The notes beneath the pieces are model-generated. The model had not been told where the DNA came from, ran no database searches, and saw nothing but the letters and a program-made list of their open reading frames with translations. The translations under genes and the position numbers were made by a program. DNA of 64,000 nucleotides, from the NCBI RefSeq assembly GCF_050920415.1, contig NZ_CP169309.1, one strand, 5' to 3'. The DNA comes from Escherichia coli (GTDB lineage Bacteria; Pseudomonadota; Gammaproteobacteria; Enterobacterales; Enterobacteriaceae). How positions within the stretch are numbered: position 1 is the first letter of the stretch; every line of letters starts with the position of its first letter. Shown here piece by piece: positions 21,728 through 63,179 of the stretch.

Positions 21728-21916
21728 TTCTCCACCTCGTCTCTGTGAGCGGTGTTAACTTATTGTTTTACTTATACCCTATCGTTAAAGAATGCGCCAA
21801 CTGTGATAGTGTCATCATTTTCAAAGCGTTAAATTGTGGCATTCTTCACTGTTCTAAAAGTAAGAGGTTTATTCTCCCTTTTCTTTCGAATTCCCGATGA
21901 TAAAAGGATGTCCCTG

Positions 21917-23860
21917 ATGATTAAGTTTAGCGCAACGCTCCTGGCCACGCTGATTGCCGCGAGTGTGAATGCAGCGACGGTCGATCTGCGTATCATGGAA
22001 ACCACTGATTTGCATAGCAACATGATGGATTTCGATTATTACAAAGACACCGCCACGGAAAAATTCGGACTGGTACGTACGGCAAGCCTGATTAACGATG
22101 CCCGCAATGAAGTGAAAAACAGCGTACTGGTCGATAATGGCGATTTGATTCAGGGGAGTCCGCTGGCCGATTACATGTCGGCGAAAGGATTAAAAGCCGG
22201 AGATATTCATCCGGTCTATAAGGCATTGAATACGCTGGACTATACCGTCGGCACACTCGGTAACCACGAGTTTAACTACGGTCTGGATTACCTGAAAAAT
22301 GCACTGGCAGGAGCGAAATTCCCTTATGTAAACGCCAACGTCATTGACGCTAAAACCAAACAGCCCATGTTTACACCGTATTTGATTAAAGACACCGAAG
22401 TGGTCGATAAAGACGGAAAAAAACAGACGCTGAAGATTGGCTATATTGGCGTCGTACCGCCGCAGATTATGGGATGGGATAAAGCTAATTTATCTGGCAA
22501 AGTCACCGTTAACGATATAACGGAAACTGTGCGCAAGTACGTACCTGAAATGCGCGAGAAAGGTGCCGATCTCGTTGTCGTTTTGGCGCATTCTGGTCTC
22601 TCTGCCGATCCGTATAAAGTGATGGCAGAAAACTCAGTTTATTACCTCAGTGAAATTCCGGGCGTTGATGCCATTATGTTTGGCCATGCTCACGCCGTCT
22701 TCCCGAGTAAAGATTTTGCGAATATCAAAGGGGCTGATATCGCCAAAGGCACGCTGAACGGCGTTCCGGCGGTAATGCCGGGCATGTGGGGCGATCATCT
22801 CGGCGTGGTCGATCTGCAACTCAATAATGACAGCGGAAAATGGCAGGTGACGCAGGCGAAAGCGGAAGCACGGCCAATTTACGATATCGCCAATAAAAAA
22901 TCCCTCGCGGCGGAAGACAGCAAGCTGGTAGAAACACTTAAAGCCGATCACAACGCCACACGCCAGTTTGTCAGCAAACCAATCGGTAAATCTGCCGACA
23001 ATATGTATAGCTATTTGGCGCTGGTGCAGGACGATCCGACCGTGCAGGTGGTGAATAATGCACAAAAAGCGTATGTCGAACATTACATTCAGGGCGATCC
23101 GGATCTGGCAAAACTGCCGGTGCTTTCAGCTGCCGCACCGTTTAAAGTCGGTGGTCGCAAAAATGATCCGGCAAGCTATGTGGAGGTGGAAAAAGGTCAG
23201 CTGACTTTCCGTAATGCTGCCGATCTTTATCTCTATCCCAATACGCTGATTGTGGTGAAAGCCAGCGGTAAAGAGGTGAAAGAGTGGCTGGAGTGCTCCG
23301 CCGGACAGTTTAACCAGATTGATCCTAACAGCACGAAACCGCAGTCACTCATCAACTGGGATAGTTTCCGCACCTATAACTTTGACGTCATTGATGGTGT
23401 GAATTATCAGATTGATGTTACTCAGCCCGCCCGCTATGACGGCGAGTGCCAGGTGGTTAATGCCAATGCGGAAAGAATTAAGAACCTGACCTTTAACGGC
23501 AAGCCGATTGATCCGAACGCGATGTTCCTCGTTGCCACCAATAACTATCGCGCTTACGGCGGCAAATTTGCAGGTACGGGCGATAGCCATATCGCTTTTG
23601 CTTCACCGGATGAGAACCGCTCGGTGCTGGCAGCGTGGATTGCAGATGAGTCGAAGCGTGCGGGAGAAATTCACCCGGCGGCAGATAACAACTGGCGTTT
23701 AGCACCGATTCCCGGCGATAAGAAACTGGATATCCGTTTCGAAACCTCTCCGTCAGATAAAGCCGCAGAGTTTATTAAAGAGAAAGGGCAGTATCCGATG
23801 AATAAAGTCGCGACCGATGATATCGGCTTTGCGATTTATCAGGTGGATTTGAGTAAGTAA
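21917..23860 (+). CDS. cpdB: 2',3'-cyclic-nucleotide 2'-phosphodiesterase / 3'-nucleotidase
   Basis: ORF track starts at 21836; ATG 21917 ([19 protein letters not shown]..., 647 aa) with signal peptide and metallophosphoesterase GNHEF motif. Confidence 0.95.
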
Positions 23861-23887
23861 AACACTTTTCCCGTCTATAGATATGAA

Positions 23888-23982
23888 CCGCATCCGGCAT
23901 TTATTGGCGGATGCGGTGCTGCTGCATCTTATCCGCCCTACAGGTCATGAACCGTAGGCCGAATAAGCGCAGCGCATCCGGC
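23888..23982. repeat. REP/BIME cluster
   Basis: CGCATCCGGCA...GCGGATGCGGTG...CCGTAGGCCGAATAAGCGCAGCGCATCCGGC units between cpdB and the ytfH stop. Confidence 0.8.
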
Positions 23983-23984
23983 TG

Positions 23985-24365
23985 TTATGCCGCACGTTCA
24001 TCCCGCACTGCCAACACCTCAGGCAAATTCAACTCAATCCAGTCCGCCAGTGCAGCAACCTTTTCGCTCACCTGCTCGCCCAGCGGCGTGAGGCTGTATT
24101 CCACATGCGGCGGCACCACCGGATAAGAGATACGGTTAAGAAACCCATCCTGCTCTAACGCCTGTAACGACTGCGCAAGCATCTTTTCACTCACCCCACC
24201 CATCTTGCGGCGCAGGTCGCTAAAACGGTGCGTACCTTCGCGAAGCGCGACCAGAATCAATACCCCCCAACGGCTGGTGACGTGTTTCAACACCTCGCGC
24301 GACGGGCACTGTTCGGCGAAGAGGTTACCCTCTTTCAGTTGTTGCGACAGGCTAGCCTGGCTCAT
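23985..24365 (-). CDS. ytfH: HxlR-type winged-helix transcriptional regulator
   Basis: 126 aa ORF MSQASLSQQLKEGNLFAEQCPSREVLKHVTSRWG...; divergent from ytfG. Confidence 0.9.
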   Translation of the reverse strand: MSQASLSQQLKEGNLFAEQCPSREVLKHVTSRWGVLILVALREGTHRFSDLRRKMGGVSEKMLAQSLQALEQDGFLNRISYPVVPPHVEYSLTPLGEQVSEKVAALADWIELNLPEVLAVRDERAA

Positions 24366-24387
24366 TCATACTTACCTTTTTGTACGT

Positions 24388-24404
24388 ACTTACTAAAAGT
24401 AAGT
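24388..24404. promoter_or_regulatory. Perfect palindrome ACTTAC-TAAAA-GTAAGT in the ytfH/ytfG divergent region (candidate operator)
   Basis: 6 bp perfect inverted arms with a 5 bp A/T spacer, centred between the two divergent start codons. Confidence 0.3.
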
Positions 24405-24452
24405 TTAGGTGGTAGCGTATTTAAACACAAGACAAACCGATGGAGGCTTCCC

Positions 24453-25313
24453 ATGATCGCAATTACCGGCGCAACCGGCCAACTTGGTCACCATGTTATT
24501 AACTCCTTACTGAAAACCGTTCCTGCCAGCCAAATAGTGGCTATCGCGCGTAACCCGGCAAAAGCACACGCACTGACAGCACAAGGCATTACTGTACGTC
24601 AGGCTGACTACGGCGATGAAGCCGCACTGACATCTGCGCTTCAGGGTGTGGAAAAACTGCTGCTGATCTCTTCCAGCGAAGTGGGGCAACGTGCCCTGCA
24701 GCATCGAAATGTTATTAATGCCGCTAAGGCGGCGGGCGTGAAATTTATCGCTTATACCAGCCTGCTACATGCTGATACCTCCCCGCTCGGCCTCGCCGAT
24801 GAGCACATCGAGACGGAGAAAATGCTGGCTGTTTCTGGCATCGCTTACACCTTGCTGCGCAACGGCTGGTACACCGAAAACTATCTCGCCAGCGCCCCGG
24901 CAGCACTGGAGCACGGCGTATTTATCGGTGCCGCGGGCGATGGCAAAATTGCCTCAGCTACGCGAGCTGATTATGCGGTAGCTGCGGCGCGCGTAATTAG
25001 CGAAGCAGGTCACGAAGGCAAGGTTTATGAACTGGCAGGTGATAGCGCCTGGACACTGACACAGTTAGCGGCGGAACTCACCAAACAGAGCGGCAAACAG
25101 GTTACCTATCAAAACCTGAGCGAAGCTGATTTCGCCGCGGCGCTGAAAAGCGTCGGTCTGCCTGACGGGCTGGCGGATATGCTGGCAGATTCTGACGTTG
25201 GCGCATCGAAAGGCGGCCTGTTTGATGACAGCAAAACGCTGAGCAAATTGATTGGCCGCCCAACGACAACATTAGCCGAGAGCGTAAGCCATCTTTTTAA
25301 TGTTAATAACTAG
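24453..25313 (+). CDS. ytfG: NAD(P)H:quinone oxidoreductase (NmrA-like)
   Basis: ORF track starts at 24228; GGAGG Shine-Dalgarno then ATG 24453 gives MIAITGATGQLGHHVINSL... (286 aa) with a Rossmann GATGQLG motif. Confidence 0.93.
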   Translation: MIAITGATGQLGHHVINSLLKTVPASQIVAIARNPAKAHALTAQGITVRQADYGDEAALTSALQGVEKLLLISSSEVGQRALQHRNVINAAKAAGVKFIAYTSLLHADTSPLGLADEHIETEKMLAVSGIAYTLLRNGWYTENYLASAPAALEHGVFIGAAGDGKIASATRADYAVAAARVISEAGHEGKVYELAGDSAWTLTQLAAELTKQSGKQVTYQNLSEADFAAALKSVGLPDGLADMLADSDVGASKGGLFDDSKTLSKLIGRPTTTLAESVSHLFNVNN

Positions 25314-25411: not shown

Positions 25412-26386
25412 ATGCCAGTAATGATTAGCGGCGTGCTGTACGCCCTGTTAGCAGGGTTGATGTGGGGGCTTATATTTGTCGGGCCGTTGATCGTGCCGGA
25501 ATACCCGGCGATGTTGCAGTCGATGGGGCGTTATCTGGCGTTAGGGTTAATTGCGCTACCCATTGCCTGGCTGGGGCGCGTGCGTCTGCGTCAGTTAGCG
25601 CGTCGCGACTGGCTTACGGCCTTGATGCTCACTATGATGGGCAACCTTATCTATTACTTCTGTCTTGCCAGTGCCATTCAACGTACTGGCGCGCCTGTTT
25701 CCACGATGATTATCGGCACCCTGCCGGTGGTTATTCCTGTCTTCGCCAATCTGCTTTATAGCCAGCGTGACGGTAAACTCGCGTGGGGGAAACTCGCCCC
25801 GGCGCTGGTTTGTATTGGCATCGGCCTGGCATGTGTAAATATTGCTGAGTTAGACCACGGACTCCCCGATTTTGACTGGGTACGTTATGCCTCAGGCATC
25901 GTACTGGCGCTAGTCTCCGTGGTCTGCTGGGCGTGGTATGCCTTGCGCAACGCCCGTTGGCTGCGGGAAAACCCAGACAAACATCCGATGATGTGGGCGA
26001 CGGCGCAGGCGCTGGTCACGCTGCCGGTTTCGCTCATCGGTTATCTTGTCGCCTGTTACTGGCTGAATACGCAAACGCCGGACTTCTCCCTACCTTTTGG
26101 CCCCCGTCCGCTGGTGTTTATTAGTCTGATGATTGCGATAGCCGTGCTTTGCTCATGGGTTGGCGCACTTTGCTGGAACGTCGCCAGCCAGCGATTACCA
26201 ACGGTGATTCTCGGGCCGCTGATTGTCTTCGAAACGCTGGCAGGTTTGCTGTACACCTTTTTGTTACGCCAGCAAATGCCGCCGCTGATGACGCTGAGCG
26301 GTATCGCGCTGTTAGTGGTTGGCGTGGTCATTGCGGTCAGAGCAAAACCGGAAAAACCCTTAATTGAACCTGTCTCTGAAAGTTGA
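25412..26386 (+). CDS. ytfF: Inner-membrane EamA/DMT-family transporter
   Basis: 324 aa polytopic membrane ORF; the start may be the ATG 9 nt downstream (MISGVLYALLAG...). Confidence 0.88.
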   Translation: MPVMISGVLYALLAGLMWGLIFVGPLIVPEYPAMLQSMGRYLALGLIALPIAWLGRVRLRQLARRDWLTALMLTMMGNLIYYFCLASAIQRTGAPVSTMIIGTLPVVIPVFANLLYSQRDGKLAWGKLAPALVCIGIGLACVNIAELDHGLPDFDWVRYASGIVLALVSVVCWAWYALRNARWLRENPDKHPMMWATAQALVTLPVSLIGYLVACYWLNTQTPDFSLPFGPRPLVFISLMIAIAVLCSWVGALCWNVASQRLPTVILGPLIVFETLAGLLYTFLLRQQMPPLMTLSGIALLVVGVVIAVRAKPEKPLIEPVSES

Positions 26387-26493: not shown

Positions 26494-27156
26494 ATGGCTT
26501 ATCGCGACCAACCTTTAGGTGAACTGGCGCTCTCTATTCCTCGCGCTTCGGCTCTGTTTCGTAAATATGATATGGATTACTGCTGTGGCGGTAAGCAAAC
26601 GCTGGCGCGCGCGGCGGCACGTAAAGAACTGGATGTTGAGGTCATTGAAGCCGAACTGGCAAAGCTTGCTGAACAACCGATTGAGAAAGACTGGCGTAGC
26701 GCCCCACTGGCAGAAATCATCGACCATATCATCGTGCGCTACCACGATCGTCACCGTGAACAACTGCCGGAACTGATTCTGCAAGCGACTAAAGTCGAAC
26801 GCGTTCACGCCGACAAACCGAGCGTGCCAAAAGGGCTGACAAAATACCTGACCATGCTGCATGAAGAGCTTTCCAGCCACATGATGAAAGAAGAGCAGAT
26901 CCTCTTCCCGATGCTCAAACAAGGCATGGGTAGCCAGGCGATGGGGCCAATTAGCGTAATGGAAAGCGAGCACGATGAAGCGGGTGAACTGCTGGAAGTA
27001 ATCAAACACACTACCAATAACGTCACACCGCCGCCGGAAGCCTGCACCACCTGGAAAGCGATGTATAACGGTATTAATGAACTGATTGATGACCTGATGG
27101 AGCACATCAGTCTGGAAAACAATGTGCTGTTCCCGCGCGCGCTGGCGGGTGAGTGA
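26494..27156 (+). CDS. ytfE: Iron-sulfur cluster repair di-iron protein (RIC)
   Basis: 220 aa [36 protein letters not shown]... with hemerythrin-like His/Glu residues; NsrR box upstream. Confidence 0.95.
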
Positions 27157-27188
27157 TCTAAAAGCTGGATGGCATTGCGCCATCCAGC
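27155..27188. terminator. Hairpin terminator between convergent ytfE and cycA
   Basis: GCTGGATGGC-ATTGC-GCCATCCAGC perfect 10 bp stem with TTTTAG on the minus-strand side. Confidence 0.7.
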
Positions 27189-27200
27189 ATGATAAAGCCG

Positions 27201-28613
27201 TTACTTCCGCAGTTCAGCAGTCCGCTTCTTACCAATAAACAACCAGCCCAACCCCAGCGCGATAAACCACAGCGGGGTAACCAGCAGCGCCTGGCGAGTG
27301 TCATCTTCCAGTGTCAGCAGCACGATCACGAACACAAAGAACGCCATACATACCCAGCACATCAGCTTACCGAGCGGCATCTTGTAGATTGATTTCTCAT
27401 GCAGGTGCGGACGCTGTTTGCGATACACCAGGTATGAGCAAAGGATAATCGTCCAGACGAACATAAACAGAATCGCGGAAACAGTCGTGATCATCGTGAA
27501 CGCGCCAATTACACTTGGATTCACATACAACATCACCACGCCGCCGAGCAGACAGATACAAGAGAAGGTCAGCCCTTTCGCTGGTACGGCGCGCTTAGAA
27601 AGTTTAGCGAACGCTTTCGGCGCAACACCTTCCTGGGCCAGACCAAACAGCATACGGCTGGTAGAGAAGACGCCGCTGTTAGCGGAAGACGCCGCAGAGG
27701 TCAGCACCACAAAGTTGATTACGCTGGCAGCCGCAGGCAAACCCACCAATACAAAAAGTTCAACGAACGGGCTTTTCTCCGGGACTACCGAACTCCACGG
27801 CGTCACGGACATAATCACAATCAGCGCGAAGACGTAGAACATAATGATACGGATCGGAATGGAGTTAATCGCACGTGGCAGTGATTTCTCCGGATCTTTC
27901 GTTTCCGCAGCGGTTGTACCGACCAGCTCAATCCCCACGAAAGCGAAAACCGCTATCTGGAATCCGGCAAAGAAGCCACTTAAACCTTTCGGGAACCAGC
28001 CGCCGTCATTCCACAAATGCGCAAACGACGCTTCCACACCGGTCGGTGACTGGAAGTGCATCATGACCATGACCAGGCCGACGACAATCAGTGACACGAT
28101 GGCGACAATTTTGATCATCGCAAACCAGAACTCCATCTCACCGAACATTTTCACGGTAGCGAGGTTGAGCGTCAGCAGCAGCACTATCACCGCCAGCGAG
28201 GCAACCCAGTCGGAGAGATCGGGGAACCAGAACTGAGCATAGGCAGTGATGGCCACCACGTCCGCCATACCGGTAACCACCCAGCAGAACCAGTAGGTCC
28301 AGCCAGTGAAATATCCCGCCCATGGCCCCAGTAAATCGGAAGCGAAGTCACTAAAAGATTTGTATTCCAGATTCGAAAGCAGCAATTCCCCCATTGCCCG
28401 CATCACGAAAAAGAGCATAAAACCGATGATCATATAAACGAAGATGATCGACGGTCCGGCAAGGCTGATTGTTTTACCGGACCCCATAAACAACCCCGTA
28501 CCAATGGCCCCACCAATGGCAATAAGCTGAATATGTCGGTTTGTGAGATTGCGCCGTAGCGACTGTTCAGCCGGAGCCTGATCATCGGCAACGACTTTTA
28601 CCTGATCTACCAT
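27201..28613 (-). CDS. cycA: D-serine/D-alanine/glycine:H+ symporter (APC family)
   Basis: 470 aa ORF MVDQVKVVADDQAPAEQSLRRNLTNRHIQLIAIGGAIGTGLF...; 12-TM amino-acid permease. Confidence 0.95.
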   Translation of the reverse strand: MVDQVKVVADDQAPAEQSLRRNLTNRHIQLIAIGGAIGTGLFMGSGKTISLAGPSIIFVYMIIGFMLFFVMRAMGELLLSNLEYKSFSDFASDLLGPWAGYFTGWTYWFCWVVTGMADVVAITAYAQFWFPDLSDWVASLAVIVLLLTLNLATVKMFGEMEFWFAMIKIVAIVSLIVVGLVMVMMHFQSPTGVEASFAHLWNDGGWFPKGLSGFFAGFQIAVFAFVGIELVGTTAAETKDPEKSLPRAINSIPIRIIMFYVFALIVIMSVTPWSSVVPEKSPFVELFVLVGLPAAASVINFVVLTSAASSANSGVFSTSRMLFGLAQEGVAPKAFAKLSKRAVPAKGLTFSCICLLGGVVMLYVNPSVIGAFTMITTVSAILFMFVWTIILCSYLVYRKQRPHLHEKSIYKMPLGKLMCWVCMAFFVFVIVLLTLEDDTRQALLVTPLWFIALGLGWLFIGKKRTAELRK

Positions 28614-28921
28614 GTTTTTTTCTTCCTGTACCTGTCTGTGTTGTTCAGGCTCTGCGGCCTTTAGTCAGTCTATGATACGACGAATCTGTATCGGGACTCA
28701 TCGATATTAGGTAACAATACGCGGGATGAATACTAAGATTTAGATCTAATGTTAATTTTATGTTTAAAGTGAGTGTCATATCACGGTGATAACGCGAAAC
28801 AGCTCACAAAAATACACGCTTACGTGGTCTTTGCAACACAAAATAGCGCCATTTGGCAAACTGAAGGGTTTATTGCTGAATGCCTGCTCCCCTCTGGCTC
28901 GAGGGGAACAGAATGCGCTGC

Positions 28922-29542
28922 TTAGAGGATTTCCAGCAGTTCGACTTCAAACACCAGGGTGCTGAACGGAGGGATGGACGCGCCTGCGCCACGCTCGCCA
29001 TAGGCCAGTTCCTGCGGGATAGTCAGTTCCCATTTAGAACCTACCGGCATCAGAGTCAGTGCTTCAATCCAGCCAGGGATCACGCCGTTAACCGGGAATT
29101 CAGCTGGCTCGCCACGGGCAACAGAGCTGTCAAACACAGTGCCGTCGATCAGTTTACCGGTGTAATGAACACGAACGCGGTCAGTGCGTGCCGGAATTGC
29201 GCCTTCCCCCTGATTGATCACGCGGAATTGCAGGCCAGATTCGGTGCTATTCACACCTTCTTTTTTGGCGTTTTCTTCCAGGTATTTCACACCTTCAGCA
29301 GCCATCGCCTGGAAACGCTGACGACGAACGGCATCGGCGCGTTCGTGGATTTCACGCAGCGCGCGGTGCACCACATCAACCGGAACAGCCGGATGTTTGC
29401 CTTCCAGCGCATCGGCAATGCCTGCAACCAGGGCTTCTGGCAGCAGCCCTTCCAGGCCTGATTCACTCAGTTGTTGCCCTACCTGCAAACCAATGCCGTA
29501 GCTTGCTTGCGCTTCGATGGTGTCAAAAGTTGGGGTGGTCAT
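28922..29542 (-). CDS. fklB: FKBP-type peptidyl-prolyl cis-trans isomerase
   Basis: ORF track begins at 29701; ATG 29540-29542 gives [18 protein letters not shown]... (206 aa) with a C-terminal FKBP domain. Confidence 0.93.
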
Positions 29543-56611: not shown

Positions 56612-57309
56612 TACTCGCCCTGTTGGCGTTGCAGTCTTGCTAATACATCCTGGGCGCTACTTTTGTTGCTACCGCCAATTCCGGCTTCCGCCAGTTTTTC
56701 ATCAAGATCGCGACCATCTGCCACTTTTTCCAGCTGTGCGGCAGCATCCAGGCGAGCTTGACGTTCGGCCTGACGCGTTTGCAGACGCTTTAAGGATTCT
56801 GCCGCTGTCGAAACGCTGGAAGATGCGCCAACAGTAGAGGTCGTTACGGCCTGTTGTGCACGCTGCATGGCTTCAGTAGCTTTAACGACTTCCATTTGTT
56901 GCTCAAATTGAGCGATACGCTGTGCTGTCGCTGTAACCGCTTTTTCCACACCATCGCGAGAGACCTCCAGATTCGACAACACTTGCTCTTCAGCGGTAAT
57001 GAGATTCTCAAGACGGGCGATTTCTTCAGCAACTTCGTTAATCAACGACGGATTAACATTCTTGCTTAACGCTTCCAGCGCGCGAGCTTCCAGACTGGCT
57101 TTACGCTCACGTAAATCTTTCAGTTTATCGTTGCTCAATTTCACTCTTGCCAGTAGATCGACACGTGATTTACCGGCCTTATCCAGTTCTGCTTTGGCAT
57201 CGCGTATATGCTGTTCAAGCATTCTAACGCCCTGTGCTTCTTCAATGGATTCTTCCGCTTGCGAGATCACCGATTTACCCAGCGTAAATAAAGTTTTTAA
57301 AATTCCCAT
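56611..57309 (-). CDS. yjfJ: PspA/IM30 (ESCRT-III-like) family protein YjfJ
   Basis: 232 aa predicted coiled-coil ORF MGILKTLFTLGKSVISQAEESIEEAQGVRMLEQHIRDAKAELDKA... Confidence 0.92.
   Translation of the reverse strand: MGILKTLFTLGKSVISQAEESIEEAQGVRMLEQHIRDAKAELDKAGKSRVDLLARVKLSNDKLKDLRERKASLEARALEALSKNVNPSLINEVAEEIARLENLITAEEQVLSNLEVSRDGVEKAVTATAQRIAQFEQQMEVVKATEAMQRAQQAVTTSTVGASSSVSTAAESLKRLQTRQAERQARLDAAAQLEKVADGRDLDEKLAEAGIGGSNKSSAQDVLARLQRQQGE

Positions 57310-61877: not shown

Positions 61878-63179
<1,302 letters not shown>

Follow-up and report, generated by a model that had tools for sequence, protein, structure and literature searches.

Genes and inverted repeats in the ytfH-qorB spacer

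The window, by which we denote the complete 64-kb stretch of Escherichia coli DNA analysed here (64,000 nucleotides), contains the gene order cpdB, ytfH, ytfG/qorB and ytfF, as outlined in Table 1. The regulator gene ytfH and the quinone oxidoreductase gene qorB are transcribed divergently from a spacer of exactly 87 bp (24366-24452).

Table 1 Genes, predicted regulatory elements and variable spacer positions at the ytfH-qorB locus (base counts from 78 aligned Enterobacteriaceae spacers).
Feature	Position	Strand	Description
cpdB	21836-23860	+	phosphodiesterase
ytfH	23985-24365	-	start codon 24363-24365; 126-aa HxlR/DUF24-family winged-helix regulator; RefSeq name ytfH
Conserved block (phylogenetic footprint)	24365-24405		holds both candidate operator sites
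Candidate operator site 1	24370-24387		ACTTAC-CTTTTT-GTACGT; 6-bp spacer; adjoins the ytfH start; one mismatch to ACTTAC-N6-GTAAGT
Variable position	24373		T/A; inside the left half-site of site 1
Probable ytfH Shine-Dalgarno sequence	24375-24378	-	AAGG; embedded in site 1; read from the sequence
Variable position	24384		A in 53, G in 25; palindromy of GTACGTAC not maintained
Candidate operator site 2	24388-24404		ACTTAC-TAAAA-GTAAGT; half-site centres 11 bp apart; perfect 7-bp arms
Variable position	24401		A in 28, T in 49; GTTAGT right arm (one mismatch) in the 49
Variable position	24404		T/C; right arm ends in Y
Putative extended -10 of the qorB promoter	24410-24418	+	TGgTAGCGT; -10 hexamer 24413-24418
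Probable qorB transcription start region	24424-24426	+	AAC; 99-100% conserved; 6-8 nt past the -10 hexamer; predicted from position and conservation
qorB Shine-Dalgarno sequence	24442-24445	+	GGAG; 88-99% conserved; 7 nt before the ATG
ytfG/qorB	24453-25313	+	286-aa NmrA-type NAD(P)H:quinone oxidoreductase; Pfam NmrA and NAD_binding_10; RefSeq name qorB
ytfF	25412-26386	+	EamA transporter

The palindrome ACTTAC-TAAAA-GTAAGT, which the initial annotation had reported between ytfH and ytfG as a perfect palindrome and a plausible YtfH operator, lies at 24388-24404, and both the position and the sequence given there were correct. It is better described by 7-bp arms (ACTTACT/AGTAAGT) enclosing a 3-bp centre, AAA. 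The left half-site occurs in an additional copy, TACTTAC at 24369-24375, 18 bp upstream of that of the palindrome, which had been overlooked. Together with the hexamer GTACGT (24382-24387) this copy makes up a second, imperfect inverted repeat, ACTTAC-CTTTTT-GTACGT. In the following, this repeat is termed site 1 and the palindrome site 2. A second short palindrome noted before, GTACGTAC at 24382-24389, overlaps site 2 by 2 bp. The hexamer centres are separated by 11 bp in site 2 and by 12 bp in site 1, in line with the dyads of DUF24-type regulators: these span about 15-18 bp, have half-site centres separated by about 10-12 bp and lie in the promoter region of the target and/or the regulator gene; both dyads of the window are located between the divergent ytfH and qorB genes. 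The centres of sites 1 and 2 are approximately 17.5 bp apart, corresponding to a non-integral number of helical turns.

Taken by itself, the palindrome is suggestive, not significant. Perfect inverted repeats in which 7-bp arms flank a spacer of 0-5 bp number 31 in the 64-kb window, or about 0.04 per 88 bp, and such a repeat is also present in about 3.3% of shuffled versions of the spacer. Since the palindrome alone is expected in about 3% of cases by shuffling, the case made here rests on the comparative data. A scan of the 64-kb window with the operator dyads revealed no further operator site above chance level. Matches with two mismatches were obtained at 57273-57289 and 62457-62474 (ATTTACCCAGCGTAAAT and AGTTACGTACGGATAAGT); they are probably chance, because their number equals the shuffle prediction.

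Concerning the surroundings of the spacer, the gap separating cpdB from the ytfH 3' end (23880-23985) is occupied by G+C-rich palindromic repeats of the REP/BIME-like GCATCCGGC...GCCGGATGC type, with a weak, sub-threshold match to the Rfam family naRNA4 at 23903-23937 (22 bits versus a gathering score of 59.5; E = 0.19). The segment from cpdB through ytfH to qorB (21836-25313) shows 90-95% identity to more than 99% of the complete E. coli genomes and at least 99% identity to 4-12 genomes only, whereas the ytfE-cycA-fklB segment beside it (26500-29500) is 95-99% identical to most genomes. In addition, the YtfH protein of the window is 98% identical to proteins of Pseudocitrobacter and Escherichia whittamii and 94% identical to the typical E. 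coli protein. Judged by sequence comparison, the cpdB-ytfH-qorB block looks like a recombined or imported allele. The operator block is unaltered within this apparently imported segment.

Conservation of the tandem dyads

A YtfH protein scan with one genome per species gave 80 loci from Escherichia, Salmonella, Citrobacter, Klebsiella, Raoultella, Enterobacter, Kosakonia, Leclercia, Atlantibacter and others. In 77 of the 80, ytfH faces a divergently transcribed ytfG orthologue, with approximately 88 bp between the two genes, and the conservation counts were derived from an alignment of 78 Enterobacteriaceae spacers. Most columns of the block 24365-24405 are 97-100% identical; the mean information content amounts to 1.83 bits per column at 24366-24405 versus 1.17 in the remaining spacer, and the first ytfH codons as well as positions 24419-24441 diverge freely. 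Within site 2, 13 of the 17 columns are invariant. Further downstream, TGnTAGYGT (24410-24418), AAC (24424-24426) and GGAG (24442-24445) are likewise conserved. The initial annotation had stated that an absence of the palindrome from orthologous intergenic regions would speak against an operator; the element is conserved in these regions, and the proposal is not refuted on this account.

The description as a perfect palindrome is valid for the window and does not extend to its relatives, among which site 2 is perfect in only 28 of the 78 species. The element is more adequately described as two imperfect inverted repeats in tandem. The separate palindrome GTACGTAC had to be given up: its position 24384 is G in 25 of the 78 species, and distant homologues read GTRNGT followed by ACTTAC. 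GTACGTAC merely marks where the two sites meet and is no element of its own, and the palindrome is site 2 of a predicted tandem operator composed of two adjacent imperfect inverted repeats.

Three loci have lost the divergent ytfG, two from Lelliottia (L061 and L071) and one from Enterobacteriaceae bacterium RIT714 (L078), and have kept an intact ytfH together with site 2; site 1 is decayed in L061 and L071. L061 carries ACTAAC-TAAAA-GTTAGT, which is re-symmetrised and again a perfect palindrome. These ytfG-less loci suggest that site 2 may be the core, autoregulatory site. The start codon of E. coli ytfH is not conserved in many genomes of Enterobacter, Kosakonia, Phytobacter, Atlantibacter and others, where the gene likely starts at an ATG within GTATGAAAA that overlaps the left half of site 1; by this shift of the start the N-terminus of YtfH would differ between the genera. 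One locus of the scan (L076, CACSKA010000007.1) is labelled Chryseobacterium sp. 18061 and shows a typical enterobacterial ytfH-ytfG arrangement with 85% YtfH identity and the same spacer. It closely resembles its companion L062 from the same project, labelled 'Citrobacter sp. 18056', and the assembly is probably mislabelled or contaminated.

More distant YtfH relatives, of 40-69% identity, were collected from 1.8 billion representative proteins without use of a profile, and contigs were obtained for ten of them. All eight distinct relatives with 53-69% identity for which upstream DNA was obtained, those in an unrelated context set aside, share the layout ACTTAC-N6-GTRNGT-ACTTAC-N5-GTWAGY-N8-TAnnnT (in the orientation of the window), and seven of these eight loci are divergent from an NmrA-type gene, the contig of the eighth (L087) being too short to tell. 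The spacers vary among these homologues, both in site 1 (CTTTTT, CAAAAA, CTTTAT, TTTTTT, CTTCAG and AAGAAT) and in site 2 (TAAAA, CAAAA, TTTAA, GAAAG and CTTTT), and the hexamers are constant, which is the signature of protein half-sites. In L083 site 2 reads CTTTC-N5-GAAAG, a change of both arms by which the symmetry is preserved. The motif is absent in two relatives that are not located beside an NmrA gene (L088 with 52% and L215 with 47% identity) and which mark the edge of the subfamily. Upstream of its HxlR gene, L215 contains TTTTGGTAAG twice, as a direct repeat 18 bp apart; the GGTAAG therein resembles the YtfH half-site, and the spacing is the same as that of the two ACTTAC copies of the window. 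This direct repeat may represent a related operator in a different arrangement.

In a complementary, motif-first approach, metagenome contigs were searched with the pattern ACTTAC-N6-GTNNGTACTTAC-V-N4-GTNAG, in which V leaves out the common enterobacterial version. The search delivered 120 loci with a G+C content ranging from 33% to 75%. A divergent YtfH-like gene (52-87% identity) is present at 103 of the 104 motif loci with at least 450 nt on the left; where the right flank reaches 950 nt or more, a YtfG-like gene is present at 91 of 94 loci. At the lone exception, L208, the YtfH-like gene is about 780 nt away and the target is a distant NAD(P)-binding gene. In the 106 unique motif-anchored sequences the flanking columns stay below 0.3 bits, and the positions left free by the pattern repeat the enterobacterial degeneracy, namely W in the column matching 24401 and Y in that matching 24404. 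Half-sites kept next to the regulator gene with free spacers were found in all three data sets, namely the 78 species, the eight loci reached through the protein and 103 of the 104 loci reached through the motif.

Both sites are perfect (ACTTAC-N6-GTAAGT-ACTTAC-N5-GTAAGT) in L104, L163 and L208, and these loci show the E. coli GTACGT to be a degenerate right half of site 1. The motif is also kept where the NmrA gene is replaced. The same operator and a YtfH-like regulator stand next to an SDR-like gene in L124 and next to a gene of unassigned identity in L104 and L163, and the YtfH-type module has been re-used with other reductase-type genes.

Promoter geometry and direction of regulation

In the 78 species T24410, G24411, T24413, A24414 and T24418 are invariant. 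In the 106 metagenome sequences the TAnnnT columns, which correspond to 24413-24418 of the window, reach 1.16, 1.73 and 1.17 bits exactly 8 nt past the right arm. As the -10 box was absent from the query pattern, this result is independent evidence of a fixed distance between the right arm and the promoter of the NmrA gene. If the -10 hexamer occupies 24413-24418 and transcription begins near 24425, site 2 would cover approximately -37 to -21 of the qorB promoter, over the -35 and spacer region, which would be the position of a repressor. The -35 match of this putative promoter is poor (3/6), and a consensus promoter and terminator scan of 23850-24600 returned nothing, no sigma-70 promoter being called in the spacer. 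In a SELEX study the qorB/ytfH spacer was among the sites bound in vitro by the sigma-70 holoenzyme (PMC3946193). The ytfH promoter was not located, since the positional enrichment of TAnnnT and TTG on the minus strand of the 106 anchored sequences gave no clear peak.

[quoted passage not shown] The preprint states that YtfH was without previous binding data; elsewhere the protein appears in lists of those E. coli K-12 transcription factors whose function is unknown (PMC9308461; PMC4797297). The de-repression is consistent with YtfH repressing qorB, and dCas9 placed near a divergent promoter could exert local effects of its own on qorB. Apart from the preprint, the literature search on qorB/ytfG regulation and on HxlR-NmrA pairs found nothing useful.

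An alternative reading, which we regard as unlikely, accepts the YtfH sites and takes YtfH as an activator (like HxlR for hxlAB and HypR for hypO) or as a dual regulator, the signal converting the bound protein into an activating form. HxlR and HypR belong to the same Pfam family and are positive regulators, oxidised HypR remains on the DNA (PMC3351151; PMC7835342), and the weak -35 element of qorB would be typical of an activated promoter. However, the activating site of HypR is located at -53 to -95 (PMC3351151), whereas 8 nt separate the end of site 2 from the conserved -10 box, and the approximately 24-fold increase of qorB upon knock-down of ytfH is the opposite of what the loss of an activator should cause.

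We give a similarly low probability to the explanation that the block is bound by another transcription factor, or is conserved merely as core promoter or ribosome-binding sequence, with YtfH acting elsewhere. It is true that CCTT (24375-24378) in site 1 can be the Shine-Dalgarno sequence of ytfH, that the ytfH ATG overlaps the Shine-Dalgarno part of site 1 in many Enterobacter-like species, and that RNA polymerase holoenzyme selects the spacer in vitro (PMC3946193). On the other hand, in the distant homologues site 1 and the ytfH start are separated by anything from about -2 to 112 nt, and therefore ribosome binding cannot explain the conservation of ACTTAC; moreover, dyad symmetry combined with variable spacers is not a trait of promoter or ribosome-binding elements. 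Against another factor stands the persistence of the hexamers at 53-69% regulator identity and from 33 to 75% G+C, where a YtfH homologue is the sole constant neighbour. As the linkage is exclusive to ytfH-like genes, a different transcription factor as the binder seems unlikely.

A hairpin in the 5' leader of ytfH, formed by the 7-bp stem or by pairing of 24370-24379 with 24395-24404 and masking the ytfH ribosome-binding site, is very improbable. Although the minimum-free-energy fold of the minus strand pairs ACUUACUUUU with AAAAGGUAAGU and includes the ytfH Shine-Dalgarno sequence, the folding energies of the two strands do not surpass those of shuffled sequences (z = 0.56 and -0.82), no Rfam match covers the spacer, and transcription of ytfH may not even begin upstream of the repeats. 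Covariation was not observed either: 24373/24401 is T-T or A-A in 54 and 24391/24401 mismatched in 50 of the 78 species. Finally, a functionless chance feature of an A+T-rich spacer, as conceivable as it is from the shuffling result and the 31 comparable repeats, is already refuted by the near-invariance over 78 species, distant homologues and metagenomes, which is incompatible with neutral sequence.

YtfH as the predicted ligand and its relation to known DUF24/HxlR regulators

YtfH belongs to the HxlR-type winged helix-turn-helix family PF01638 (residues 29-115, E = 2.8e-32, 110.9 bits versus a cutoff of 20.8). The closest solved structure is that of the Salmonella YtfH orthologue (1YYV), followed by HxlR, YtcD, HypR and YodB. 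The protein contains a single cysteine, Cys20 in the motif CPSR, which aligns with the N-terminal cysteine of HxlR and PG_0823 and thus takes the place of the reactive cysteine at the start of helix alpha-1, which is Cys6 in YodB, Cys14 in HypR and Cys11 in HxlR. Cys20 is invariant in all 109 homologues associated with the motif and the sole cysteine of the aligned part in 80 of them; the putative recognition-helix segment GGVSEKMLAQ is highly conserved throughout the set. In HxlR the corresponding Cys11 is a conserved family residue that senses electrophiles and oxidants (PMC7835342).

With good confidence we take the tandem ACTTAC/GTAAGT dyads as the predicted YtfH operator, by which qorB would be repressed through promoter overlap, with probable autoregulation and release via Cys20. 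The initial proposal of a YtfH operator tied to ytfG is well supported by the footprint in Enterobacteriaceae, the hexamers retained at 53-69% identity, the 103 of 104 loci, the overlap with the promoter defined by the -10 box and the CRISPRi de-repression, with binding itself predicted from sequence. A YtfH dimer would bind each inverted repeat, its two recognition helices being placed about one helical turn apart, and YtfH on site 2 would exclude RNA polymerase and keep qorB off. Given the shortness of the spacer, these sites would very probably limit ytfH transcription as well. A quinone, another electrophile or an oxidant would then modify Cys20, YtfH would be released and the quinone reductase induced, in analogy to YodB, QsrR, QorR and HypR; this redox control is suggested by the invariant Cys20 and by the family precedent. 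Sequence, conservation, linkage to ytfH-like genes and position relative to the conserved -10 box are direct observations, from which we infer binding by YtfH, its stoichiometry, the autoregulation and the inducing signal.

A close comparison is offered by YodB of Bacillus subtilis, a sensor of quinones and diamide with its box upstream of azoR1. YodB shares PF01638 with YtfH, its structure 5HS7 matches YtfH with E = 4.6e-9, and its N-terminal sensing cysteine is found at the same alignment position. YodB represses a quinone- or azo-reducing enzyme, as YtfH would by our reading, and both operators are short A/T-rich dyads with half-sites about one turn apart, the YodB operator being TACT-N7-AGTA (PMC8063818). 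In contrast to YodB, the half-site is ACTTAC instead of TACT, one cysteine stands in place of Cys6 and Cys101, and there are two tandem sites between divergent genes.

The literal sequence TACT-N7-AGTA occurs once in the 64-kb window, at 24387-24401. We did not assign this match to the YodB boxes; its axis (24394) is displaced by 2 bp from that of the conserved dyad (24396), and the 49 of 78 species with GTTAGT no longer contain it. The YtfH element would act like a YodB box and yet is not one, the resemblance going no further.

HypR (YybR) and HxlR of B. subtilis have the same fold and family as YtfH, and their structures (4A5N/4A5M and 7BZD/7BZE, respectively) match it. HypR recognises a 7-2-7 inverted repeat, which occurs at the hypR promoter too (PMC3351151); this box and that of YodB are precedents in the family for operator dyads of 15-16 bp. 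HxlR is an activator as well (PMC7835342). Both act from upstream of the promoter, HypR from -53 to -95, whereas the sites assigned to YtfH overlap it and the knock-down values in the preprint supplement indicate repression.

For QsrR, the quinone-sensing YodB-family repressor of Staphylococcus aureus, thiol S-quinonisation on the N-terminal cysteine and a DNA complex with the two recognition helices in consecutive major grooves have been described, as cited in PMC8063818. By analogy, QsrR is most likely the mechanistic model for the one-cysteine YtfH. Its operator sequence probably differs from the YtfH half-site, and QsrR controls a multi-gene regulon. [quoted passage not shown] Judged by these analogies, YtfH-qorB would belong functionally with YodB-azoR1, QorR-QorA and QsrR, as a module of a thiol-sensing DUF24 repressor beside a quinone-detoxifying reductase. 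It is set apart from them by the ACTTAC half-site, the two tandem dyads approximately 17.5 bp apart, the single-cysteine sensor and the occurrence in genomes of 33-75% G+C.

The YtfH-qorB link as such was recently reported on the basis of expression data, which are the only functional datum on YtfH in the literature searched; no account of the cis-element was found there. This link now gains a testable cis-element in the form of two ACTTAC/GTAAGT dyads over the qorB promoter. Furthermore, the operator model provides a position-specific motif for finding further regulon members and, by analogy, points to Cys20 as the sensor residue. The arrangement is of a useful and ordinary repressor-operator type, solid, testable and unsurprising, and through it the pairing of DUF24 regulator and quinone reductase, familiar from Gram-positive bacteria, is extended to enterobacteria and many environmental bacteria, with no new mechanism. 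More tentatively, the data taken together may be read such that YtfH and its relatives form a widespread and ancient one-cysteine sensor module, present from 33 to 75% G+C, with obligate tandem dyads whose centres are 17.5 bp apart, so that two dimers would sit on nearly opposite faces of the DNA as a cooperative dimer of dimers, with one half-site also serving as the -35 element. Such an arrangement, if true, would have no described counterpart in YodB, QsrR or HypR, and it could provide E. coli with a dedicated, switch-like response to quinones and electrophiles, apart from the known electrophile and redox regulators NemR, SoxR and MarR.
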